A DNA stretch of 48,865 bases from assembly GCA_046260175.1 (NCBI GenBank), contig JBHEPS010000005.1, positions 8,636 through 57,500 on the forward strand, written 5' to 3'. The notes below the pieces were generated by a model, which had not been told where the DNA came from, did not search any database, and worked only from the letters and a program-made list of their open reading frames with translations. This document shows positions 28,465 to 39,645 of this stretch, piece after piece. Both the position numbers and the translations under genes were made by a program. Each line of letters starts with the position of its first letter. Position 1 is the first letter of the stretch. Source of the DNA: Thermoanaerobaculia bacterium. Lineage in GTDB: Bacteria; Acidobacteriota; Thermoanaerobaculia; Gp7-AA8.

Positions 28465-30063
28465 ATGGGGGTCCGGCCCCAGCCACACGCGCCAAATATG
28501 GAATCCGAAGACCGACCCTCCCACCCCCGCCGCTCCGATGAGCTCTCCCTCATCGCGGGCAAGGTTTATCTGGTCGGCTCCGGACCCGGGGATCCCGGCC
28601 TGCTGACACTTCGCGCCGCCGAGCTTCTACGCGCCGCCGATGTCGTCATTCTCGATTCCCAGGTTTCCTCCGACATCGTTGCGCGGATCGGCTCGCATGC
28701 CCGCATCCTCGATCCCTCCAAGAGGAAGAGCGGCAAGAAGGAACTTTCCGAGAAGGACATCGAACAACTCATCGTCGAGGAGGGGCGCAAGGGAAAGATC
28801 GTCGTCCGGCTCAAGAGCGGGGATCCGTTCGTTTTCAGCGGCGGGGGCGAAGAAGCCGAGACGCTCCGGCAGGCGGGAGTTCCGTTCGAGATCGTCCCGG
28901 GCGTTTCCACGGCGATCGCCGCTCCGGCCTATGCCGGAATTCCGGTCACGCACCGGCTCGATGGCTCGACGGTCGTGCTGGTCAATACGAAGGACCCCGG
29001 CTTCGAGCGCATTTCCTGGCCCTCGCTGACCGCCCTGCGCGGTACGCTGATCTTTCTCGGAGGAACGGCCGCGGTTGCAACCACGGCCTCCCGCCTCCAG
29101 GAGGCCGGGATGGACCCCTCCGCCCCGGCGGCCGTGGTCTCCCACGGGACGACGCGACGGCAGAAAACGACCGCCGGAACCCTCGGGACGATCGGAGAGC
29201 TGAGCCGCGAGATCGACCCGTCCGCTCAGTCGCTGCTCGTGGTCGGCGAGGTCGTTCGACTCCACGAATCGATCGCGTGGTTCGAGTCGAAGCCGCTGTT
29301 CGGTCGGACGATCGTCGTCACGCGGGCGCGCGCCCAATCCTCGGGGCTGGTGAAGCTTCTCGAGAACGAAGGTGCGTCGGTCGTTCAGTTCCCGATGATC
29401 GAGATCCGGCCTCCCGAAGCATGGGAATCGCTCGACGGGGTCCTCGACAATGTCTCCGCGTACTCCTGGATCGTCTTTTCTTCCAGCAACGGAGTCGAAG
29501 CCTTCTTCGAGCGGCTGGGACATCACGGAAAAGATTTGCGCGTACTGGCGTCGTGCCGGATCGCCGCGGTTGGCGATGCGACGGCGACTTCGCTTCACAA
29601 TCGCGGGATCATTCCGGACCTCGTGCCCGAGAAGTTCCAGACCGCAGCTCTCATCCCCCATTTTCCGGAGAACCTGAAAGGCGTGCGGATCGCGATCATT
29701 CGCGCCCTTGCCGGGAAGGACGACCTTCTCATGGAGCTCCGCCACCGGGGAGCCGTGGTCGACCTGGGGGTGGCATATCAGACCAGGCCCAGCCGGGGCC
29801 TGAGGGATCAGCTCGGGTCGATGCTCGGCTCCGGCCGGATCGACGCGATCACGTTCACGAGCGCATCGACGGTCGACAATTTCTTCGAGCAGCTCACCGA
29901 GGACGAGCGGAAGAACGTGATCTCGAACATTCGTCTCGCCTCGATCGGACCGGTGACGAGCGAATCACTCCGCTCTCACGGCGTGGACCCTGCGATCGAA
30001 GCTCCGGAAGCGACGATCCACTCGCTCACCCGCGCACTCGTCGATCGCTTCTCTAGGGACTAG
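28465..30063 (+). CDS. cobA-hemD: Bifunctional uroporphyrinogen-III C-methyltransferase / uroporphyrinogen-III synthase
   Basis: The N-terminal half has VYLVGSGPGDPGLLTLRAAELLRAADVVILD and RLKSGDPFVFSGGGEE. The C-terminal half is HemD-like (GRTIVVTRARAQSSGL...). An alternative ATG lies at 28498. The last codons and the TAG stop lie inside the heptamer array. Confidence 0.88.
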   Translation: MGVRPQPHAPNMESEDRPSHPRRSDELSLIAGKVYLVGSGPGDPGLLTLRAAELLRAADVVILDSQVSSDIVARIGSHARILDPSKRKSGKKELSEKDIEQLIVEEGRKGKIVVRLKSGDPFVFSGGGEEAETLRQAGVPFEIVPGVSTAIAAPAYAGIPVTHRLDGSTVVLVNTKDPGFERISWPSLTALRGTLIFLGGTAAVATTASRLQEAGMDPSAPAAVVSHGTTRRQKTTAGTLGTIGELSREIDPSAQSLLVVGEVVRLHESIAWFESKPLFGRTIVVTRARAQSSGLVKLLENEGASVVQFPMIEIRPPEAWESLDGVLDNVSAYSWIVFSSSNGVEAFFERLGHHGKDLRVLASCRIAAVGDATATSLHNRGIIPDLVPEKFQTAALIPHFPENLKGVRIAIIRALAGKDDLLMELRHRGAVVDLGVAYQTRPSRGLRDQLGSMLGSGRIDAITFTSASTVDNFFEQLTEDERKNVISNIRLASIGPVTSESLRSHGVDPAIEAPEATIHSLTRALVDRFSRD

Positions 30064-30279
30064 GGACTAGGGGCTAGGGGCTAGGAAAATCAACGGCAAC
30101 TCCTGTCATCGAGCGAGCGCCGGAGGAATCTGAACTCTCCTGCCATCTTGAGATCCTTCACTCGCGGGCACGGCGACCGTAAATCGTTCACTCAGCGCGG
30201 CGCTCGCTCAGAATGACAGAGGGGTTGCGGTTGCTTTTCCCTAGTCCCTAGTCCCTAGTCCCTAGCCCCTAGTCCCTAA
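30053..30279. repeat. Nested palindromic repeat element, copy E1, with inverted heptamer arrays
   Basis: The left array is CTAGGGA x2, CTAGGGG x2, CTAGG (30053-30085). The right array is CTAGTCC x3, CTAGCCC, CTAGTCC, CTAA (30241-30279). The inner arms are 30084-30100 / 30224-30240 and 30103-30122 / 30198-30219. The apical core box at 30139-30186 is shared with E2 and E3. Confidence 0.9.
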
Positions 30280-30317
30280 CGCTGGCGCCGCCTCCTCCTC
30301 TCCCCTACACTCGCGGC

Positions 30318-33300
30318 ATGAAGGGGGGCCCGAACCACCGCTCACTCAGCCACGCGCTGGCGAGTGGTCTCTTCTGGATCGCTTCCTTCGCCTACGCCTG
30401 TTCGCTCTTCTTCACGCTCCGCAAACCTCTTCGCAACCTCGACCCAGAGCCCCCGGTTGCGATCGGCCGAGTCGTAATCGACTCCGTCTCGAAGACGAGC
30501 GAGTACGCGATGGCGGCGTTGTTCTTCATTGCGGTCCCGATTCTCACGATTCTCCTGCGAAGAGGGCTCGAGTGGTGGCACGACCGGCTCGCGCCAGACC
30601 TTCAGCCCGGCAGCCAGAAGCTCCTCTCCGCCTTCCTCTTCTCGCTTCCATGGATCGCTGCGCCCGCGCTCTTTCTCGCAACGCAGAAAGAGATCTGGGG
30701 GGTGATCTTCCCCGCCGTCCTCCCCGCCGTGGGACCCGTATTGCTCCAGCTGTACAGAAGCCGGCGGTGGATCCGCCAGATTTTTCGCCCCGGCATGGGG
30801 CCATTTCACGCTTTGCTTCTGGCGGAGGCGGCGGCGTGGATTCTTTTCCGCTACCTCGCGACCGGAAAGTGGATCGCGCACATCAGCACGCTCTTTCTCG
30901 AGGTTCTCTTCGTCGCCTTCTTCGCGGCGCTGTTCGAGGGGCTTGCGATCCTGCTCGCGCGGCTGACGTCGACCATGCGAGGGACAGCAGCCGACACCTG
31001 CTTCGCCCGCATCACGGTCGGCGCCTCCCCGCTGCTGGCCCTTCCACTGGCCGCGCTTTTCACGGAGGGAAGCGCCGTCGCCGCCGTTGCGATCTGGCTC
31101 GTCTCGGCTGCGAACATCACCGTCCAACTCCTGAAGCGCGACTCCGAGGTACCAAACGGGCGCCGGGTGCGGACCCTGGTCGGTTGGGTAGCGATCCCGC
31201 TCCTGCTGCTCGTCGGAGGGTGGGCTTCCACGGTCCAGCTGTCGGAATGGGTTGATCTGTTCCACAGGGGCGAATCGCTCGGCCCCGCCTCCGATTATCT
31301 GCGGGGAGACCTTCCCTACCGCGACGTCTTCGTCCTTCACGGGCTGCTCGAGGACGGGATGCTCGACGCCTGGCTCATGACGATCTTCGGCCGGAGCGCG
31401 GAGGTTGCCGTCGTGAGAGCCGCGGTTCTCGCGGCCGCGACGATTCCGGCGCTCTGGATTCTCGGTCTCGTCATTTTCGAGTCCTTCCCCCTGGCGTTGC
31501 TCGTCGTCATGCTCGGCTACGCGACGTTCATCGAGAATCCTCGCGCCTTGCCGGAGATCCTCGCCGCAGCCGCGCTCGTAGCGGCGTTGCGACGTCGAAA
31601 TGGATGGATGGCGGCGCTCACGGGCGCCCTCGGCGGTTTCGCGCTCTTCCTCAGCTTCGACATCGGGCTCTACACCCTCGGCGGCTCCGCGATCGCGCTC
31701 GCGGTACTGACGATCTGGCGGGTTCGAACCGGGGAGAAGGGAAGGCTCTGGCTCCTTCCGGTTGCCTGGGCCGGCGGCGTCGCGGCCGGAATCGCTCCCT
31801 TCTGCATCGGCCTCGCCGCGGCTGGTGTGTTCGGCGACTTCCTGCGGGTTTCTTTCATCGACGTCCCGCGATTCATCGATCCGGTCTGGTCGCTTCCGTT
31901 TCCCGATTACGGCGCTCAGTTCAAGAATGAGTTCAGCCTCAGGAAGCTGCTCGGGTTTCTCCTCGGCGAGGGTATCCGTTTCATCCTCAACCCGATCGTG
32001 ATCGCCGCGGCGATCGGGGTTCTGGTCCACCGTTTCTACCGGCGGACCATCGGCAACCTCGAGCTGGGTCTGCTGGCGATCACCGCTCTGGCGCTGGTTA
32101 CCCAGCGGAGCGCGCTCGGTCGAGCCGACTTCCCCCATCAGTACTTCTCGGCTTTTCTCATCTCACCGATTCTCGTCGTCCTCGGAACGATGCTGTTTCG
32201 GTCCGCCTCGCAGCACTGGCACGAGGGGAGAGGCTCGGAGCGCGTTCTTCTCGTCACGCTCTCTCTCGTTCTGGTCTCGATGCTCGGGGCAACCCTCTGG
32301 ATCCCCGACCTCGTGGAATTGCGCCTCCGGTGGCTGACCAGCTATCGCGCGCGGCTCGGGGGAGCCGAGCTGGAAGCGCACGTGGCGGAGACGAAAGAGC
32401 GCATCTCGGCGGTCAGCCGAGAGGTTCGCCTGCTATCCGGCGGAGATGAGTCGATCTTCGACTTTTCGAATCAGCCGGCGCTCTATTTCTACGCGGATCG
32501 CCGGAATCCGACTCGCTTCTACCAGGTGCCGATTCTCTCGCCGCCGCGCTTCCAGGCCGAGACGATCCGCGACCTCGAGCGGTCGCGGCCGGCCGTCGTT
32601 CTTCGCGGGTCGCCGACTGGACTCGACCGGTTCGACGGCATCCGCAACGAGGTGCGCGCCCAGGCGATCGCCGCGTGGATCGACGCGAACTATGAGTTTC
32701 GACGAACCATTCGAGGAGTCGAGCTCTGGACTCCCCGGGAGCGGCCGGTGCGCGCACCGGTCTCCACCTGGCTCGAGGCGATCCATCTGCCGGACGCGGA
32801 GTTGATCGACGCCAACACCGAGCGGGTCGTGTTCCCTGCCGTTGGGACAGTCCGGGGAGCGAACGACGCCGAGTGGGTCTCCGACCTGCTCGTGCACAAC
32901 CAGGGCGACGTCGCCGTGGAGCTGAGGCTGAGATTTTCGGGAAGCGGGGGGAGCGCCGACCGCTTGCGCGTCGTCGCTCCCGGGCGGCTGGAGCGATTCG
33001 AGAGCTTCTCGGCCACGCTTTTCGGATTCGATCAGAGTGTCGGCTCGCTGTGGATCGAATATCCGATCGGGAACCGCCCCGCCCTCTTCATCGAGACCCG
33101 CGACTCGTCGCGTCCAGGAAGCGGAACCCGCACATCTCCCCTGCACGCCACACAGGCCGTCGAGGAAGGCGGCGAGCGCGAGGAGCTCCTCATCATCGGT
33201 GCCGACGGCACCTGGCCGAGGAGAGTCAATATCGGGGTGGTGAATTTCGGGACGCGGCCGGCGATCGTGCGCATCCACGCCACCACGGAGTCGGGAGAAG

Positions 33301-33524
33301 TGATCGGTCTCCCGGTCCAGCATCAGATCGCCGAGGAGGACTCCTGGATCCTGGTCGACGCCGCCTCGCATCTGGGGGTGCCCATCGAGGGGGGAACCGT
33401 GATCCACGCGACGCCGGTCCGGGGGAGGATCGGCGCCTGGGCTTCGGTCGTGGACGCGACGCGAGGAATTCATCAGGTGCTCGAGGCATTTCCGGCGACG
33501 AATGATCCGAATCGACGTCCCTGA
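30318..33524 (+). CDS. Large polytopic membrane protein (1068 aa) with a C-terminal extracytoplasmic beta-rich region; family not recognised
   Basis: The first ~650 aa are rich in hydrophobic helices. A soluble region follows (NPTRFYQVPILSPPRFQAETIRDLERSRPAVVL...), then two similar segments (VFPAVGTVRGANDAEWVSDLLVHNQGDVAVELRLRF... and RRVNIGVVNFGTRPAIVRIHA...). Confidence 0.75.
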   Translation: MKGGPNHRSLSHALASGLFWIASFAYACSLFFTLRKPLRNLDPEPPVAIGRVVIDSVSKTSEYAMAALFFIAVPILTILLRRGLEWWHDRLAPDLQPGSQKLLSAFLFSLPWIAAPALFLATQKEIWGVIFPAVLPAVGPVLLQLYRSRRWIRQIFRPGMGPFHALLLAEAAAWILFRYLATGKWIAHISTLFLEVLFVAFFAALFEGLAILLARLTSTMRGTAADTCFARITVGASPLLALPLAALFTEGSAVAAVAIWLVSAANITVQLLKRDSEVPNGRRVRTLVGWVAIPLLLLVGGWASTVQLSEWVDLFHRGESLGPASDYLRGDLPYRDVFVLHGLLEDGMLDAWLMTIFGRSAEVAVVRAAVLAAATIPALWILGLVIFESFPLALLVVMLGYATFIENPRALPEILAAAALVAALRRRNGWMAALTGALGGFALFLSFDIGLYTLGGSAIALAVLTIWRVRTGEKGRLWLLPVAWAGGVAAGIAPFCIGLAAAGVFGDFLRVSFIDVPRFIDPVWSLPFPDYGAQFKNEFSLRKLLGFLLGEGIRFILNPIVIAAAIGVLVHRFYRRTIGNLELGLLAITALALVTQRSALGRADFPHQYFSAFLISPILVVLGTMLFRSASQHWHEGRGSERVLLVTLSLVLVSMLGATLWIPDLVELRLRWLTSYRARLGGAELEAHVAETKERISAVSREVRLLSGGDESIFDFSNQPALYFYADRRNPTRFYQVPILSPPRFQAETIRDLERSRPAVVLRGSPTGLDRFDGIRNEVRAQAIAAWIDANYEFRRTIRGVELWTPRERPVRAPVSTWLEAIHLPDAELIDANTERVVFPAVGTVRGANDAEWVSDLLVHNQGDVAVELRLRFSGSGGSADRLRVVAPGRLERFESFSATLFGFDQSVGSLWIEYPIGNRPALFIETRDSSRPGSGTRTSPLHATQAVEEGGEREELLIIGADGTWPRRVNIGVVNFGTRPAIVRIHATTESGEVIGLPVQHQIAEEDSWILVDAASHLGVPIEGGTVIHATPVRGRIGAWASVVDATRGIHQVLEAFPATNDPNRRP

Positions 33525-34149
33525 GTCCTGGAGAAGCATGGCCGCCGTCGTCGCCTCGGTCGACGAGACCGATCTGGCGCAGAGTTTTTCAGAGGCGGAG
33601 CACGCGCGTATTGCCTCGTTCCGGCGGGAGAAGCGCCGCCGGGAATGGGCCGCGAGCCGGATGGCGGCCAAACTACTGGCGGTCGAAACGGGCCTCTGCC
33701 ATTCGCTCACCGACTGCACGGTCGCCAGCGCCTACCGCCGACCTGCGCTGACCATCCACGGCGAAGAGTCCCCGGTCGGCGTCTCGATCACCCACTCGGA
33801 CGGTGCGGGCGCTGCGGCGATCTCACCGAGGCGCATCGGGATCGACCTTCAACTCGTTCGCCCGATGAAGGACCGCTCGACGAAGTTCTTTCTCAACGAC
33901 GATGAGCTCGAGATCTGGCGCGGAATGAGTCTCGCCGATCCGCTCATCCATCTCTGGTGCGCCAAAGAGGCCGGATACAAGCTTCACGCAATGCCCGGCT
34001 GGTACCGGGGGGTGAAGATCGAGCTCGTGGAAGAGCGCTCCGATGGACTCCTGCTGAAGTACGCGGATCCGCTCAGCCGGGGATCGATCGAGACGGCGCG
34101 ACTGAAGGATGGATTCGTGTTCGCGATAGCGAGAAAAACTAGGGGCTAG
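33502..34149 (+). CDS. 4'-phosphopantetheinyl transferase superfamily protein
   Basis: The motifs are EWAASRMAAKLL, GVSITHSDGAGAAAI, IGIDLQLV and WCAKEAGYKL (the W/FxxKEA motif). It overlaps the upstream gene by 23 nt. An alternative ATG lies at 33538. Its stop codon lies in the E2 heptamer array. Confidence 0.8.
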   Translation: MIRIDVPESWRSMAAVVASVDETDLAQSFSEAEHARIASFRREKRRREWAASRMAAKLLAVETGLCHSLTDCTVASAYRRPALTIHGEESPVGVSITHSDGAGAAAISPRRIGIDLQLVRPMKDRSTKFFLNDDELEIWRGMSLADPLIHLWCAKEAGYKLHAMPGWYRGVKIELVEERSDGLLLKYADPLSRGSIETARLKDGFVFAIARKTRG

Positions 34150-34440
34150 GGGCTAGGGGCCAGGGGCCAGGGGCTAGGGGCTAGGGGCTAGGAAAGGCAA
34201 AACCAACCCCCGTCATCCTGAGAGGCTGTGAAACCGTGACGTCGCGCCACTGGTGAGCGCGAGCGAGGGATCTCCAGATACGAAGATCGTGTTGAGCCGG
34301 CGACTGGCAAGGGCCGCGATCCTGCCATTTTGAGACCTTCACTCGCGCACACGGCCACCGTGAAATCGAGCCCTCCGCGCGGCGCTCGCTCAGGCCGTTG
34401 CTCTTCCCTGGCCCCTGACCCCTAGTCCCTAGCCCCTGCC
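34139..34440. repeat. Nested palindromic repeat element, copy E2 (longer, with an internal inverted duplication of the core)
   Basis: The left array is CTAGGGG x3, CCAGGGG x2, CTAGGGG x2, CTAGG (34139-34192). The degenerate right array is CTGGCCC CTGACCC CTAGTCC CTAGCCC CTGCC (34408-34440). GTCATCCTGAG lies at 34212-34222. The core box at 34321-34368 is about 85 percent identical to E1 30139-30186. An inverted partial copy lies at 34247-34274. Confidence 0.9.
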
Positions 34441-34441
34441 T

Positions 34442-35221
34442 TTAATCCGTGAGCGGCCCGTCGGCGCGGCCCTCCACGAACTGCCGGACGATCGGGTTGG
34501 TGCTCTTCTCGAACTCCTCGGGGGGGCCCTGTTCGATGATCCGTCCGTCGTGGATCATCGCCACCTTGTCGGCGATCTTGAACGCCACTTTCAGGTCGTG
34601 CGTAATCGTGATCGCCGTCGCGCCGAGCTTGTCGTCCATTTCGATGATCAGGTCGGCCACCACGTCGCTCATCACCGGATCGAGTCCCGTCGTCGGCTCG
34701 TCGAAGAGCAGAATCTCCGGCGCGAGGGAGTACGCCCGGGCGAACCCGACCCTGCGCCGCATTCCGCCCGAGAGCTCCGAGGGGCGCTTGTCCGACACGC
34801 CGTAGAGGTTCACTTGCTCCAGACATTCCTCGACCCGCGCCTCGATCTCCTTCTCGGTCATCTTCGTGTGCCGCCGCAATGGGAACGCGACGTTCTCGAA
34901 GACGGACATCGAATCGAAGAGAGCGCCCTCCTGGAAGCTCATCCCGAAGCGGCGACGCATCACGTTCAACTCGCGCGGCCGCATGTGACAGACGTCTTCG
35001 CCATCGACAAGGACGTGGCCCCGATCCGGGCACATCAGTCCGATGATGTTCTTGAGCGTCACGCTCTTGCCCGTTCCCGAGCCCCCGACGATTACGACCG
35101 ACTCTCCCTGGTGAATGTCGAGCGAAAGCCCCTTCAGGACCTGAATCGGTCCGAAGGACTTGTGGAGGTCCATCAGCCGGAGCAGGATCGTTTCCTGGTA
35201 GTGCGGAGTCCGCTGGACCAT
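34442..35221 (-). CDS. mlaF: ABC transporter ATP-binding protein, MlaF/Mkl-like
   Basis: The motifs are Walker A GGSGTGKS, signature LSGGMRRRV and Walker B ILLFDEPTTGLD. There is an ATGA overlap with the upstream permease gene. Confidence 0.85.
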   Translation of the reverse strand: MVQRTPHYQETILLRLMDLHKSFGPIQVLKGLSLDIHQGESVVIVGGSGTGKSVTLKNIIGLMCPDRGHVLVDGEDVCHMRPRELNVMRRRFGMSFQEGALFDSMSVFENVAFPLRRHTKMTEKEIEARVEECLEQVNLYGVSDKRPSELSGGMRRRVGFARAYSLAPEILLFDEPTTGLDPVMSDVVADLIIEMDDKLGATAITITHDLKVAFKIADKVAMIHDGRIIEQGPPEEFEKSTNPIVRQFVEGRADGPLTD

Positions 35222-36000
35222 CAGAAAAGCACTTTCGTGAGGAAGAAATCGCTGAGCAGGATCAGAAGCGAGCCGGTGACCACGGCCGAGGTGGTCGCGC
35301 GGCCGACGCCCTCGGCGCCGCCCGTGGTGTAGTACCCCTTCAGGCAGCCCGTCAGCGTCAGGATCAGGCCGAAAACGGCGGCTTTCACCAGACCGCTCCA
35401 GATGTCCTTCAGATCGAGAAACATCCAGGTGTTCTGGTCATACACGAGCGAATTCGCACCCAGGAGCTTCACCGCGACCAGGTAACCGCCGCCGATTCCG
35501 ATCGCGTCGCCGAGCAGCGTGAGGAAAGGGAGCATCACGATGCCGGCTATCACGCGGGGGACGAAGAGGTAGTGGACCGGATCCGTCGCGAGCGCCTCGA
35601 GCGCGTCGAGCTGCTCGGTGACCCGCATCGTGCCGATCTCGGCCGCCATCGACGATCCGACGCGGCCCGCCACCATGAGACCGACCAGAACGGGCGAAAG
35701 CTCCCGCACCATCGCCAGGGAGACGACACTCGCCACGAAGTTCTCCGCGTGGACGCGCCGAAATCCTTCGAAGGTCTGCAGCGCCATGACCATCCCCGTG
35801 AACATCGTCGTCAGCGCGACGACCGGGATGGAGTCGATGCCGAGACGAACCATCTGGCGGAGCCATTCCCGAATCTCGAAAGGCGGCCGGAAAGTCCAGA
35901 CGAATGTCCGCTGGAGCATCTGGAACCATCGCCCGGTCTCCTCGAACAGCCTGAAGAAGAGATCGCCGAATGGCTCGAATATGCGGGTGAGAGTGTGCAT
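35221..36000 (-). CDS. mlaE: ABC transporter permease, MlaE-like
   Basis: The ATG at 36000 gives MHTLTRIFEPFGDLFFRLFEETGRWFQ... The product is 259 aa. The typical MlaE pattern is EQLDALEALATDPVHYLFVPRVIAG. Confidence 0.85.
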   Translation of the reverse strand: MHTLTRIFEPFGDLFFRLFEETGRWFQMLQRTFVWTFRPPFEIREWLRQMVRLGIDSIPVVALTTMFTGMVMALQTFEGFRRVHAENFVASVVSLAMVRELSPVLVGLMVAGRVGSSMAAEIGTMRVTEQLDALEALATDPVHYLFVPRVIAGIVMLPFLTLLGDAIGIGGGYLVAVKLLGANSLVYDQNTWMFLDLKDIWSGLVKAAVFGLILTLTGCLKGYYTTGGAEGVGRATTSAVVTGSLLILLSDFFLTKVLF

Positions 36001-36051
36001 GCGGCCGGCGCGATTGTACCGTGTGAAAGGGCGGTCTGCTGAACGCAGCGA

Positions 36052-36087
36052 GGGACTAGTTTGTCCTATACGTCCTATCGGTCCTAT
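36052..36087. repeat. Short degenerate tandem repeat: one GGGACTAG unit, then GTCCTAT x3 with a 9-nt period
   Basis: GGGACTAG lies at 36052-36059. GTCCTAT lies at 36063-36069, 36072-36078 and 36081-36087. All are in the alr-mlaE intergenic spacer. Confidence 0.6.
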
Positions 36088-36126
36088 CTCTCCCTGGGGA
36101 TTCCGGGCTCTGGAGAGCCCGCCCAC

Positions 36127-37278
36127 TCAGGCGGGCGCCACGGTCCTCCGCCCCGATTCGATCCAGACCCGCGGCACTCGTCGTCCAACCCCGCAGAGAA
36201 TCTCGTAGGAGATCGTGTTCAGGAGGACCGCGAGCTCCTCCGCAGGAATCTCCTGCTCCCCCTGACGTCCGAGCAGGACGACTTCGTCCCCCGTGTGAGC
36301 GTCGGGGATCTCCGTGACGTCGACCGTCACCAGATCCATCGATACTCTCCCCACCACGGGCGCCCGCATCCCGCGGACGAGCACTTCGGCCCGGTTCGAT
36401 AAGTTGCGGCTGTAGCCGTCGGCATACCCCACCGGCAGCGTTGCGATCCGGCTCTCGCGAGGGGCTCTCCACGTACAGCCGTAACCGATCGGGGCCCCCG
36501 CGGGCACCCTCTTCAGTCTGGCGATTCGGGTCGTCCAGCGCATCAGAGGCGAGAGCCGCGCCCCCCCCGTGTCCAGAGGCTCAGCCCCGTAGAGGATGAT
36601 TCCCGCCCGTACCCAATCGCCCGGTTTCACGAGCCCCCGCGCAATCGCCGCGCTGTTGGCAACGTGGTGGAGCGGCGCCTCGACTCCCTGGTCGCGGAGC
36701 CTGGCGAGCATCGACTCGAATCGCTCGGTCTGGCGTTGCGTGTAGGAGTCGGCCGGGGCGGACGCATTCGCGAAGTGCGTGTAAATCCCTGCGACGCGAA
36801 CGCCGGGTAACTGCCCGAGAGTCGCGGCGGCCCCGTCCAGGTCCTCCGGAAGAAAGCCCATCCTTCCCATGCCGCTGTCGAGCTTGAGGTGGATCTCTCC
36901 CTGCCAGGAGCTCGCGCGGGCGCGAGCTGCAAAGACGGCCAGTTCCTCCGGACCGATCATGCCGGGGAGAAATCCCCGTTCGAAGCAGCGGTCGAACTGG
37001 GGCGCCGTCAACGGACCGAGAATCATAATCGGAGCGCGAATCCCCGCGTCGGCAAGCGCCTCCGCTTCTTCGATAAGAGCCACCGCGAAGCCCGAGACCC
37101 GATCCTCGCACCGGAGAGCCAGCGGCACCGCTCCATGACCGTAGGCTTCGGCCTTCACGACGGCGATCATCTTCGAAGCGTGCGGAAGCATCGCCCTGAC
37201 CGCATCGACGTTGCGATCGAACGCCTCGAGATCGATCTCGGCGAAGGTGGGGCGCAGATGGTTCTCGTCAGGGACCAT
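36127..37278 (-). CDS. alr: Alanine racemase
   Basis: The PLP-lysine motif is MIAVVKAEAYGHGAV. The C-terminal motif is PIGYGCTW...VGYADGY. The ATG at 37278 gives a typical N-terminus (RPTFAEIDLEAFDRNV). The longer listed ORF adds an Arg/Ser-rich extension. Confidence 0.9.
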   Translation of the reverse strand: MVPDENHLRPTFAEIDLEAFDRNVDAVRAMLPHASKMIAVVKAEAYGHGAVPLALRCEDRVSGFAVALIEEAEALADAGIRAPIMILGPLTAPQFDRCFERGFLPGMIGPEELAVFAARARASSWQGEIHLKLDSGMGRMGFLPEDLDGAAATLGQLPGVRVAGIYTHFANASAPADSYTQRQTERFESMLARLRDQGVEAPLHHVANSAAIARGLVKPGDWVRAGIILYGAEPLDTGGARLSPLMRWTTRIARLKRVPAGAPIGYGCTWRAPRESRIATLPVGYADGYSRNLSNRAEVLVRGMRAPVVGRVSMDLVTVDVTEIPDAHTGDEVVLLGRQGEQEIPAEELAVLLNTISYEILCGVGRRVPRVWIESGRRTVAPA

Positions 37279-37969
37279 AGAGATGGAGATTCTGCCCCTG
37301 GATCGGGCGGGAACGCTCGGAAGAAAGGAAGAGAATCGCCTCGGCGACCTCATCGGTCGTCATCACGGGAACTGCATCGGGGGCGGCGGCTCGCAGCATC
37401 TCGGTATCGACCGACCCGGGGCTGAGTGCGTTCACGCGCACACCGCGCGGGCCGACCTCGGCAGCCAGTGCCTCTGCAAAACCGATGACGGCCGCTTTCG
37501 AGGCCGCGTAGGGGACAAGGCCCGGAAATTTGCTCGAGCCCGAGACTCCGGAGATCGAAGCGACGAGGACGATCGCTCCGCGGCCTCGCTCGAGCATCGC
37601 CGGCAACACGCGACGAACCGGGCGGAACACCGCGTGAAGGTTCGCCGCGATCGACGCCTCCCACTGCGCATCGCTCGTTTCGACGATCGGCCGGGGATCG
37701 ACCAGACCGGGGGAGGTGAGAAGGATCTCGGCAGGGCCGAAGCGCGCCTCGAGCGCCGCGACGCACCGCTCGACGTCTTCCGAGCGAGAAGCGTCCCCGG
37801 GAAGCACGAGCGCGCGATCACTCCCCGCGGCGAGCTCGCGCAGGGCCCCCTCCCGCCGGGCCATCGCTCCGACCCGCGCGCCGGCAGCGAGAAATCTCTC
37901 GGCGGCCCGCCGCCCGATGCCGCTCGAGGCGCCGACGATCAGGATGGTTTTTCCCTCGAACTCATTCAT
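37268..37969 (-). CDS. SDR-family oxidoreductase
   Basis: The motifs are KTILIVGASSGIGRRAAERF (TGxxxGxG type) and YAASKAAV (YxxxK). The product is 233 aa. Confidence 0.85.
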   Translation of the reverse strand: MNEFEGKTILIVGASSGIGRRAAERFLAAGARVGAMARREGALRELAAGSDRALVLPGDASRSEDVERCVAALEARFGPAEILLTSPGLVDPRPIVETSDAQWEASIAANLHAVFRPVRRVLPAMLERGRGAIVLVASISGVSGSSKFPGLVPYAASKAAVIGFAEALAAEVGPRGVRVNALSPGSVDTEMLRAAAPDAVPVMTTDEVAEAILFLSSERSRPIQGQNLHLYGP

Positions 37970-38145
37970 CCGGCGATTCTACCGCCCTGAAGGTCGGCCA
38001 CGCTTTCCCGATCTCCACCAATCGTAGACCCGGACCCGGGACGCAGCCGCCCGGTTCCTGCCGACTACAAGATGCTGGGGTCCGGGCAGTCTCTCCGCAC
38101 CAGAGCTCTACGATCGGCCGGGGGCGGGACTAGAATGGCTCCCCC

Positions 38146-39174
38146 ATGAAGATCCGGAAGATGCTCGAGCAGCTCGAAGAACAGACCATGGTCCCGCAGG
38201 CGGCGAGGAGCGCGGAAACGCGCGGACGGGACGTGCGGGAGCGGGAAGACGACATTCGCCCCTCGTACCAGCGCGACCGCGACCGGATCATCCACAGCAA
38301 GGCGTTCCGCAGACTGAAGCACAAGACGCAGGTGTTCCTGGCTCCCGAGGGGGATCATTACCGCACGCGGCTGACGCATGTTCTGGAAGTGACTCAGATC
38401 GCGCGAACGATCGCGAAGGCGCTGCGGCTCAACGAGGTGCTGACCGAAGCGATCGGGCTCGGACACGATCTCGGGCACAGCCCGTTCGGCCACGCGGGAG
38501 AAGCGGCGCTGAACAAACTCGTCCGCGGCGGGTTCAACCACTACCGGCAGTCCGTCCGCGTGGTGGAGAAGCTGGAGAACGACGGACGGGGCTTGAATCT
38601 CACGATCGAAGTCAGGGACGGGATCCTGAAGCATTCGAAAGGGGAGAAGGGCGAACTGTTGAGACGGCGCCCGAAAGCGAGGGCGCTGACGCTCGAGGGT
38701 GACATCGTGCGAATCTCGGACATCATCGCTTACGTCAACCACGACATCGACGACGGCATCCGAGCGGGATTGCTCAGAGAACGGGATCTCCCGAAGGGAG
38801 TCAGAAAAGTTCTCGGGCAGAAGCCGAACGCGCGGATTGCGACGATGGTGAAGGACGTCATCGACGCGACGCTGGCCACCGATTACGAACAGATCTCGAT
38901 GACGCCCGAGGTTTATGGCGCACTCGAGGATCTGCGGACATTCATGTTCGAGAACATGTATCTGACGCCCGCAGTCCGCGATGAGTTCGAAAAAGCACAG
39001 GCGATGCTGACGGCCCTTTTCGAGCACGTCCACTCGCATCCCGAAAAATACCTCGACATGGAGTCGGGAGAGCCGGTGGACCGCCTCACGCTGGACTTCA
39101 TCGCGGGGATGACGGATCGATACGCGATCGGACTGTACGAGAAGGTGTTCGTACCGCGGCCCTGGCTCGCGTAA
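38146..39174 (+). CDS. dgt: dGTP triphosphohydrolase-like HD-domain protein
   Basis: The motifs are [40 protein letters not shown] and [16 protein letters not shown]. The product is 342 aa. Confidence 0.88.
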
Positions 39175-39193
39175 CGGCTGATGACCCTTGTGC

Positions 39194-39278
39194 GCCGTCA
39201 TCCTGAGGGAGCGCCGCGCATCCGTATCGACCGGCGACACCGGTGAGCGCGACCGAAGGATCTCAGAATGGCAGGATG
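39194..39278 (+). repeat. Solo core copy (E3) of the palindromic element family, lacking heptamer arrays
   Basis: The sequence is CCGTCATCCTGAGGGAGCGCCGCGC...GGTGAGCGCGACCGAAGGATCTCAGAATGGCAGGAT. It aligns with the reverse complement of the E1 and E2 cores. Confidence 0.75.
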
Positions 39279-39290
39279 CCCCATCACTTC

Positions 39291-39323
39291 AAAAAAAAGA
39301 CGCTCTCGATAACGAGAGCGTCT
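39291..39323 (-). terminator. Intrinsic terminator of hup
   Basis: The minus strand reads AGACGCUCUCG-UUAU-CGAGAGCGUCU (11-bp stem) followed by the U-run encoded by the A8 tract at 39291-39298; the first U of that run is also the last stem base. It lies about 25 nt downstream of the hup stop. Confidence 0.85.
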
Positions 39324-39348
39324 CTTTCTGCCGAGAAAAAACTTTGAA

Positions 39349-39645
39349 TTACTTGCGGCCGCGCTTCTTGGTGTTGAGGGAAGTCTTGAGATCCTTCCCG
39401 GCCTTGAAACGAACGTTGCGGCTGGCCGGAATCTGAATGGTCTCGTTGGTTCGCGGGTTGCGGCCGGTGCGGGCCTTGCGCTCACTCACGGTGAAGCTTC
39501 CAAGCCCCGGGACGGAACAACGCTCGCCGCTCTGGCATGTCTCGGCGATGTATTCGACGAACGCGTCATAGGCAGCGGTGGCCTCTTTTTTCGAGATTCC
39601 CGCCTGCTCCGCGATCGCGCTGACGAGGTCAGCTTTTCCTGCCAT
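39349..39645 (-). CDS. hup: HU-family DNA-binding protein
   Basis: The ATG at 39645 is preceded by AGGAGG. The product is MAGKADLVSAIAEQAGISKKEATAAYDAFVEYI...GLGSFTVSERKARTGRNPRTNETIQIPASRNVRFKAGKDLK. Confidence 0.93.
   Translation of the reverse strand: MAGKADLVSAIAEQAGISKKEATAAYDAFVEYIAETCQSGERCSVPGLGSFTVSERKARTGRNPRTNETIQIPASRNVRFKAGKDLKTSLNTKKRGRK

Follow-up and report, generated by a model that had tools for sequence, protein, structure and literature searches.

What is the palindromic element that lies between two convergent genes at positions 34139-34440 of a 48.9 kb stretch of DNA from a Thermoanaerobaculia bacterium, and are its arms kept complementary by selection? In this stretch (hereafter the window; 48,865 nucleotides, G+C content of approximately 64%), the element, named E2, consists of two inverted arrays of heptamers that enclose a core which is itself palindromic. 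An initial annotation read E2 as an expanded and internally duplicated version of a similar element located upstream (E1), with arms that co-vary as a signature of selection on pairing. The window was compared with fetched contig loci, designated here by L numbers. The results suggest that E2 is probably one decaying copy among the dispersed non-coding repeats of an uncultured Thermoanaerobaculia lineage, a family built as nested palindromes and akin to repetitive extragenic palindromic (REP) sequences, bacterial interspersed mosaic elements (BIMEs) and REP doublets forming hairpins (REPINs), and not a new RNA gene.

The element itself is real and far beyond chance. Tandem Repeats Finder (TRF) recovered the left array as 7.7 copies of CTAGGGG at 34139-34192 (95% matches, score 94), in line with the number of units first described, and an inverted, degenerate right array of the CCCTAGC type at 34406-34437 (4.6 copies, 80% matches). 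The two-unit pattern CTAGGGNCTAGGG was counted 20 times in the window where 1.85 occurrences were expected, a number that none of 100 shuffles reached, and all matches except one fell within E1 or E2. The spacer GGAAAGGCAAAACCAAC, the motif GTCATCCTGAG at 34212-34222 and the tail GCGCGGCGCTCGCTCAGG (also given as GCGCGGCGCTCGCTCAG) were likewise present as claimed. The core box at 34321-34368 differed from its counterpart in E1 (30139-30187) at about six of 50 columns (about 88% identity), and an inverted-repeat search recovered the partial core copy that faces it (34253-34269 versus 34336-34352, 17 nt, 82% complementary). Thus far the initial annotation was accurate: one grammar is common to E1, E2 and a third element, E3, and E2 holds two inverted core copies. 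Its suggestion that the centre can fold back on itself also held, and extended to the whole element, as the predicted RNA folds reached -165 kcal/mol for E2 (z -6.1 versus shuffles) and -140 kcal/mol for E1 (z -11.3). The parts of E2 and the genes on either side of it are as follows.

33502-34149, + strand: upstream gene, 4'-phosphopantetheinyl transferase (PPTase; Pfam PF01648).
34139-34192, + strand: left purine-rich arm, in the order CTAGGGG x3, CCAGGGG x2, CTAGGGG x2, CTAGG (TRF, pattern count).
34193-34211, + strand: left inner spacer AAAGGCAAAACCAACCCCC, family consensus AAAAGCAACNGCAACCCC (alignment A4).
34212-34287, + strand: unit Ua, sense on the + strand (covariance model R1, 53.8 bits, E 2e-14; alignments A2 and A4).
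34288-34318, no strand assigned: oriented linker between Ua and Ub, …CGTGTTGAGCCGG…CGCGATCC (alignment A4).
34319-34399, - strand: unit Ub, sense on the - strand, equivalent to the core box plus tail of the initial annotation (R1, 63.9 bits, E 1.4e-17).
34395-34405, no strand assigned: what is left of the right inner spacer, CCGTTGCTCTT, which mirrors the left one (alignment A4).
34406-34438, - strand: right pyrimidine-rich arm, CCCTGGC CCCTGAC CCCTAGT CCCTAGC CCCTG (TRF; inverted repeats I1-I8).
34442-35221, - strand: convergent downstream gene, MlaF-like ABC transporter ATPase (Pfam PF00005; synteny with relatives).

The repeated component of the core is a unit of about 80 nt, U, which in E1, E2, E3 and their relatives reads (C/T)GTC-AUCCU-GA-GS-GA-GCGC, a semi-variable segment of about 33 nt, and GCGC-GA-SC-GA-AGGAU-CUC-ARRAUGGCAGGAUC. 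Its 5' end is a tag, (C/T)GTC followed by AT, found as CCCCCGTCATCC in Ua, GCGCCGTCATCC in E3 and TCTGTCAT in E1. A metagenome scan with the 5' 20 nt of U retrieved at least 120 loci; among the listed metagenome loci U comes in long (79-82 nt) and short forms, and some short relatives carry a GCGAAGC-type tip. A helix was predicted by RNAalifold on 32 long units, and the covariance model R1 was built on that helix. R1 detected 126 units in 100 metagenome loci (0.53 Mb, chosen for containing one) and, in the window, four units at three intergenic sites with no other convincing match. Two of these units are Ua and Ub, and the other two sites are the following.

30053-30278, no strand assigned: E1, the same composite as E2 minus about 78 nt (R1 match at 30137-30217, - strand, 75.4 bits; alignment A4), with arrays at 30053-30085 and 30238-30278 (TRF).
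39197-39277, + strand: E3, a solo long U unit with no arrays (R1, 86.8 bits).

The U stem consists of 11 Watson-Crick pairs and two tandem G·A loops, starting with A-U (62 of 125 units) and U-A (123 of 125), and it carries an apical region of about 33-47 nt in the long form. In the alignment, 93% of the cells were paired versus 87.6% in shuffles, none of which reached the observed value (0 of 500), and slid controls gave 28-45%. Six of the 11 pairs vary on both sides in a compensatory manner. Specifically, pair 12:112 is GC in 69 units, CG in 35 and UA in 3, and pair 6:124 is CG in 103 and UA in 17. The alignment used for these counts was fitted to R1, which favours structure; the two strongest pairs are visible by eye in the MAFFT alignment. 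The covariation inside the U stem is genuine, and the stem is under selection.

The initial annotation raised the possibility of a structured RNA, that is, a long double-stranded hairpin processed by RNase III or a similar enzyme, with arms kept complementary by selection. The very stable predicted folds of E2 and E1 and the covariation within the U stems agree with this explanation, as do the symmetric GA/GA internal loops, which are near-invariant and typical RNA motifs and would stabilise one strand only, the GTCAT strand, as RNA or single-stranded DNA. Arrays of the same kind also flank genes for proteins of the 23S rRNA intervening sequence (IVS) type in other phyla, and classical IVS stems are RNase III substrates. 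On the other hand, single U units are thermodynamically ordinary, being no more stable than shuffles on either strand (z about 0), and no promoter-like site was found nearby. No Rfam family matched at gathering score in the window, and only chance-level matches appeared at E<=10 in 29900-39500. The orientation of solo units speaks against it as well. By crude gene calls, solo U units adjoin gene 3' ends more often than 5' ends (60 versus 33), with no clear preference for the sense or antisense orientation relative to the adjacent gene (34 versus 26), which fits a DNA-level element tolerated downstream of genes.

The arms do not show what a structured RNA of this type would require of them. The mirrored CCAG/CTGG variants from which their co-variation had been proposed do exist in one register, in which 34141-34172 and 34406-34437 are 94% complementary over 32 nt, but this register lies three units off the inner junction. 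Permutation of the right-arm units of E2 equalled or beat the observed score in 250 of 500 trials, so that pairing between the arms is no better than expected from simple inverted duplication. More generally, only three of 97 informative inverted array pairs gave p<0.05, about the chance level. Unit numbers are also unequal between arms (8 versus 5 in E2; 14 versus 4, 16 versus 6 and 4 versus 14 in orthologues), and in L152 the arms even differ in type, with CCAGGGA on the left and CGAGGGR on the right. Such rough complementarity as the arms have comes only from their make-up, since each consists almost uniformly of one heptamer that is identical or similar to that of the other arm, and each arm homogenises on its own. 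Co-variation of the arms as a signature of selection was not supported; compensatory change resides inside each U hairpin and not between the arms.

The organisation of U units in metagenomes provides the direction of change. Pairs of units in the 100 loci comprised 24 with tags outward and a gap of about 37 nt, none with tags inward and four in tandem. Heptamer arms accompanied about 10 of the 24 outward doublets and were absent from 14. The two members belong to different subtypes, with tails …CTCCAGATACGARGATCG versus …CTCARAATGGCAGGATCG, and are joined tail to tail by an oriented linker of about 30-40 nt; the doublet is enclosed by a short inverted spacer, AAAAGCAAC…/…GTTGCTTTT. Complete doublets are present in L147 at the E2 site and in L153 at the E1 site, and L238 and L268 hold the two-unit form as well. 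Judging from these alignments, the two-unit doublet is the ancestral and commonest form, and E1 a deleted version of it. The proposal that E2 is an expanded, internally duplicated E1 was not borne out, given that the two-unit form occurs in these four loci and in the 24 metagenomic doublets. The extra inverted partial copy is therefore the second ancestral member of the doublet. E2 keeps both doublet halves, E3 is a solo unit, and E1 has lost about 78 nt, the missing columns corresponding to the 3' two-thirds of Ua plus the linker (alignment A4). E2 itself carries two disabling deletions in the same alignment. In Ua the CGTC tag is kept and the 5' stem half is rewritten, with GAGAGG----CTGTG replacing GAGCGAGCGCCGGAG, so the conserved GCGC stem is lost. 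In Ub the tag end (GATGAC) and about 20 nt of the adjoining spacer are deleted by comparison with L147, L238, L153 and L268.

Orthologous sites in relatives, on syntenic contigs fetched through homologues of the transferase, proved to be hypervariable; these homologues also assign the window to Thermoanaerobaculia, within Acidobacteriota. The contents of each site are listed below, with the identity of the transferase in parentheses.

E2 site, L147-L150 (87%): degenerate arrays and a complete doublet.
E2 site, L153 (89%): Ua and an unrelated unit.
E2 site, L152/L151 (86%): three units, between CCAGGGA (left) and CGAGGGR (right).
E2 site, L154 (94%, the closest relative): no U; a spacer of 45 nt separates about 20 units on the left from about 5 on the right.
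E2 site, L275 (80%): CTAGGGA followed by GCCAGAA arrays.
E2 site, L277 (71%): short U units, no arrays.
E2 site, L278 (64%): a 30-nt gap.
E1 site, L151: empty, 44 nt.
E1 site, L275: empty, genes overlapping.
E1 site, L276: empty.

Arrays change on an even shorter scale. The E1 array has 13 heptamers in L147:5352-5449 versus five in L148:1337-1378, within an otherwise near-identical element. Judged from these comparisons, the turnover at both sites looks like the behaviour of unstable, dispensable DNA and not that of a conserved RNA gene. It also completes the case on structured RNA, as the closest relative has no U at the E2 site, more distant relatives have an empty site, and E2 has lost one stem half and one tag. 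Despite the genuine stem covariation, we give the structured RNA no more than an outside chance. Coding potential was rejected, since orthologues differ by whole units and by indels that are not multiples of three. The 53-aa minus-strand gene that is called in L147 wholly inside the element at the E2 site (L147:9501-9662; also in L148, L149 and L150) is almost certainly an artefact of the repeat and not a true ORF.

Presence or absence of the whole composite at the E1 site could also be explained by a classical miniature inverted-repeat transposable element (MITE), a non-autonomous DDE-type transposon with the heptamer arrays as terminal inverted repeats and a variable cargo. Among the matches listed for CTAGGGR arrays, convergent pairs in many phyla enclose cargo ranging from 7 nt to an ORF of about 400 nt, and the divergent order was never seen, which agrees with this explanation. 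The E1 site itself argues otherwise. E1 is flanked by a HemD/CobA fusion gene and, on the same strand, by a conserved ORF of 1068 aa, and the C-terminus S-R-D-stop of HemD/CobA is encoded by the first 1.7 heptamers of E1 as TCT AGG GAC TAG (30050-30063). At empty sites the same C-terminus is encoded as AGC CGG GAT TAG or AGT CGG GAC TGA (L151:6758-6775, L275:1310-1327). Since the residues are the same and the codons are not, the array has taken the place of the gene end, or written over it, by synonymous change, perhaps by way of microhomology to GGGAYTAG. Filled and empty sites thus differ by replacement and not by duplication, and neither E1 nor E2 shows a target-site duplication or direct repeat. 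Moreover, the two arms of an element are unequal in length and type, and slippage alters them from one strain to another. Many doublets lack arrays altogether, the same core can be flanked by any of several unrelated heptamers, and a search of 1.9 Mb of loci yielded no transposase with matching ends. A MITE is for these reasons very unlikely.

The position of E2 suggests yet another role. It occupies the whole gap between the two convergent genes: the last codons of the transferase (…R G *) and its TAG stop (34147-34149) fall inside the first two heptamer units, an overlap that recurs in relatives L147, L153 and L154, and the TAA stop codon of the MlaF-like gene (- strand) is at 34442-34444, 3 nt past the right array. 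E3 is likewise located between convergent genes, and U units favour gene 3' ends. A selected bidirectional terminator or insulator, composed of a hairpin, A-tract/T-tract spacers and a pyrimidine-rich trailing arm, would suit such sites. The spacers read GGAAAAGC…GCTTTTCC, with AAAA…TTTT around the inner hairpin, and the purine-first, pyrimidine-last polarity of the arms matches the A-tract…U-tract polarity of bidirectional terminators. However, the T-runs are just 4 nt long, and a terminator scan marked only a small hairpin with a T-rich tail on the - strand (34224-34207). Terminator-like matches were not enriched in the region (7 versus 5.7 expected). E1 is inside a co-directional row of hem genes, 40 nt before the next start codon, where L151 has a gap of 44 nt; L278 has no more than a 30-nt gap at the E2 site; and a single site can hold anything from no unit to three. 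The HU gene beside E3 has a canonical terminator of its own. We therefore consider a dedicated terminator to be unlikely.

Arms and core can be separated. U doublets with their spacer are flanked by CTAGGGG, CGAGGGG or GGCAGAA arrays, or by no array, and the left spacer also follows GGCAGAA arrays in L178, L184, L259 and L264. Conversely, scans for CTAGGGR arrays returned at least 118 genome loci plus 28 viral-contig loci, distributed across many phyla, in which + and - arrays within 600 nt of each other were always arranged as CTAGGGN…NCCCTAG and never in reverse, and none of the enclosed cargo was U (all among the matches listed). Because arrays enclose cargo other than U, and U doublets have varied arms or none, the two are separable modules. 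On one arm of one doublet, (CTAGGGG)3 is followed in tandem by (AAGGCAG)4 (L178:372-450), which suggests that arrays are added or replaced from outside.

This modularity bears on a DNA-structure feature, in which G-quadruplexes (or i-motifs on the C-rich arms) or a cruciform would act on replication or transcription. The left arm does contain eight runs of three to four G with 3-nt loops, the - strand contains five, and the G-rich arm is at the 5' side on each strand. Since the same doublet and spacer are flanked elsewhere by GGCAGAA arrays, which have no G3 runs, or by no array, quadruplex potential is not a property of the family, and an explanation of this kind seems to us very improbable. 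The occurrence of GGCAGAA arms around the same core also led us to reject the idea that the CTAG arrays serve to place stop codons in every one of the six frames.

Arm composition follows a strict rule. An unbiased period-7 finder identified 70 inverted heptamer-array pairs in the fetched loci and the window, and in 61 of the 63 that were compositionally skewed, which came from at least 15 heptamer families, the purine-rich arm was 5' and the pyrimidine-rich arm 3', an order that reads alike on both strands. Some convergent CTAGGGR arrays exactly bracket an ORF of about 125 aa from the 23S rRNA IVS protein family (PF05635, E 1e-35 to 1e-39; L061:7451-7883, L112:3176-3663 and L130:6826-7321) with a weak bAvd match, and each looks like an IVS-type cassette outside rRNA. 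Inverted heptamer pairs might thus represent a phylum-spanning cassette boundary made or used by one mechanism. The cargo consists of REP-like doublets here, Avd-like genes for 23S IVS proteins in Xanthomonadales-type genomes and assorted short sequences elsewhere. Candidate mechanisms may include IVS-like RNase III excision of the enclosed RNA, or hairpin-dependent mobilisation of single-stranded DNA that builds the ends by templated 7-nt reiteration. We regard a common boundary mechanism as quite unlikely.

The U family is best read as a CGTC-tagged DNA repeat, either selfish or neutral, which is set in a slippage-prone palindrome and would affect mRNA 3' ends as a by-product, in the manner of REPs. 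Like a REPIN or BIME, the doublet would gain and lose copies at the level of DNA, probably in the form of a single-stranded hairpin that is handled by some enzyme (a RAYT-like HUH protein or other; RAYT, REP-associated tyrosine transposase) or by recombination. The heptamer arms would grow, shrink and homogenise independently by replication slippage. As the element is strand-symmetric, both convergent genes would receive the same 3' extension, composed of a stop codon in the array, the purine-rich array, the spacer and a sense U hairpin. With the same extension on both mRNAs, the effect on the cell would most likely be REP-like, in the form of 3'-end protection or damping of read-through of the flanking mRNAs, and not that of a dedicated RNA gene.

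Several observations weigh against this reading. Regular-expression and tblastn searches of 1.9 Mb of loci for RAYT/IS200 transposases recovered no mobilising enzyme, save for one weak fragment. This single hint is a RayT-like C-terminal fragment (NF047646, E 3e-7) located 160 nt from a short U in L185 (L185:1-192 and 314-358), and all 88 of its database homologues are only 39-112 aa long. Ten other RayT-like loci (L281-L290; Terriglobia contigs) had no clear U, and the window has no RAYT gene. Neither E1 nor E2 displays a visible target-site duplication, and at the E1 site the HemD C-terminus is the same with and without the element but is written in different codons, which is not what a simple cut-and-paste insertion predicts. 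Only three sites were seen in 49 kb. The tandem G·A loops, which would stabilise the GTCAT strand only, would also suit an RNA function. The strict polarity of the arms could mean that they are selected for something, and the persistence of arrays at the E2 site in every relative with at least 80% PPTase identity could signal selection as well. Two further observations were made during the search for enzymes. The ORFs between two U units in L230, considered as mobilising genes, turned out to be ordinary genes, and at L285:2300-2840 a RayT-like gene is apparently split by an inserted repeat.

Among described repeats, the closest counterpart is the CGTC-tagged REP superfamily, whose tag varies to TGTC and CCTC and whose units of 20-40 nt have a stem of 8-9 bp that starts with A-T, a loop of 4-5 nt and a 3-nt tail (Di Nocera, De Gregorio & Rocco 2013, PMC3733652). 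These REPs occur mostly as dimers, often heterodimers, have no dedicated transposase and have been reported in Proteobacteria, Chlorobi, Bacteroidetes, Spirochaetes and Thermotogae; longer palindromes that contain such dimers were described as well (PMC3733652). U resembles them in the unpaired CGTC/TGTC tag at one end, the A-T stem start and the short unpaired tail. It also forms inverted dimers of fixed geometry, often heterodimers. Like the CGTC REPs, it lies outside genes near gene 3' ends, has some dimers within a longer palindrome and no dedicated transposase that we could find. In contrast, U is about 80 nt long, with 11 pairs and two tandem G·A loops instead of 8-9 plain pairs, and an apical semi-variable insert of about 33-47 nt replaces the 4-5-nt loop, so that it falls outside the stem and loop sizes of the superfamily. 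Its tail is CTC… and not CCA, the palindrome that encloses it is made of heptamer microsatellites, and Acidobacteriota are absent from the five listed phyla.

REPINs and BIMEs are doublets of GTAG-type REPs of Pseudomonas and E. coli, mobilised by RAYT. They share with the family described here a repeated unit that is an inverted hairpin doublet with a defined linker, singlets as remnants, a mosaic build, sites between convergent or co-directional genes and a presumed single-stranded DNA hairpin substrate. They differ in that the U tag is (C/T)GTC and not GTAG, U units are longer, the arms are microsatellites, and the single RayT-like fragment near a short U in L185 is the only candidate counterpart of a flanking RAYT gene.

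Heptanucleotide repeats, such as cyanobacterial short tandemly repeated repetitive (STRR) sequences, the TAACTGA repeats of Beggiatoaceae (reported as direct repeats, which often lie shortly before start codons) and long 7-nt simple sequence repeats, are intergenic, variable in length, present as several families per genome and across phyla, and unexplained (PMC4679880). The arrays of E1 and E2 share these features, including head-to-tail 7-nt units and length polymorphism (the 13 versus five of L147 and L148). Unlike them, the arrays here form inverted pairs with a fixed purine-to-pyrimidine polarity that enclose a REP-like doublet. 23S rRNA intervening sequences contain an ORF for an intervening-sequence protein (IVP; four-helix-bundle, Avd-like) within long stem-forming inverted repeats. 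Enclosure of cargo by long inverted repeats is common to both, and the arrays of L061, L112 and L130 enclose ORFs of the corresponding family (PF05635), whereas E2 has no ORF and is not in an rRNA gene.

On balance, the family is best read as a variant of known tagged REP/BIME-like bacterial repeats. If true, this would extend CGTC-type tagged REPs to Acidobacteriota, with an architecture of three layers (hairpin unit, inverted doublet, microsatellite palindrome) that is unusually elaborate, and would offer a clear natural record of how such elements decay and turn over at orthologous sites. No central question of the field is changed by it. The elements also carry a warning for annotation, given that they provide the stop codons of genes upstream, give rise to calls of small spurious ORFs and break assemblies, as several contigs (L149, L151, L154 and L275) start or end inside heptamer arrays. 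Should a general mechanism exist, the strict arm polarity and the occasional IVP genes among the cargo offer inexpensive ways of approaching it.

Other searches returned little. BLAST of E2 against plasmid and phage collections gave no match, and a scan of viral contigs for the 3' end of U gave none. Full-text searches of the literature for the U sequence and CTAGGGA retrieved irrelevant matches only, and those combining IVP with heptamer or STRR with palindrome retrieved nothing useful. Exact-protein look-ups of the two flanking ORFs in the window matched no record.

As for the neighbourhood of E1 and E3, the 1068-aa ORF that follows E1 (30318-33524, + strand) has no Pfam domain and is 1056-1091 aa long in all relatives. 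It lies between the hem genes and the phosphopantetheinyl transferase, whose start it overlaps by about 23 nt. E3 is located between the end of an HD-domain gene and the terminator of the convergent HU gene, a canonical intrinsic terminator (GAGACGCTCTCG…CGAGAGCGTCTTTTTTTT) at 39290-39342 (- strand) that directly follows HU, with E3 just beyond. Finally, in a more distant member of Thermoanaerobaculia (L278:2455-2790), the E1 site contains another repeat altogether, with direct copies of GGGGATTTCATGTGGCCGG and, about 200 nt from these, inverted copies (CCGGCCACATGGGAATCCCC).

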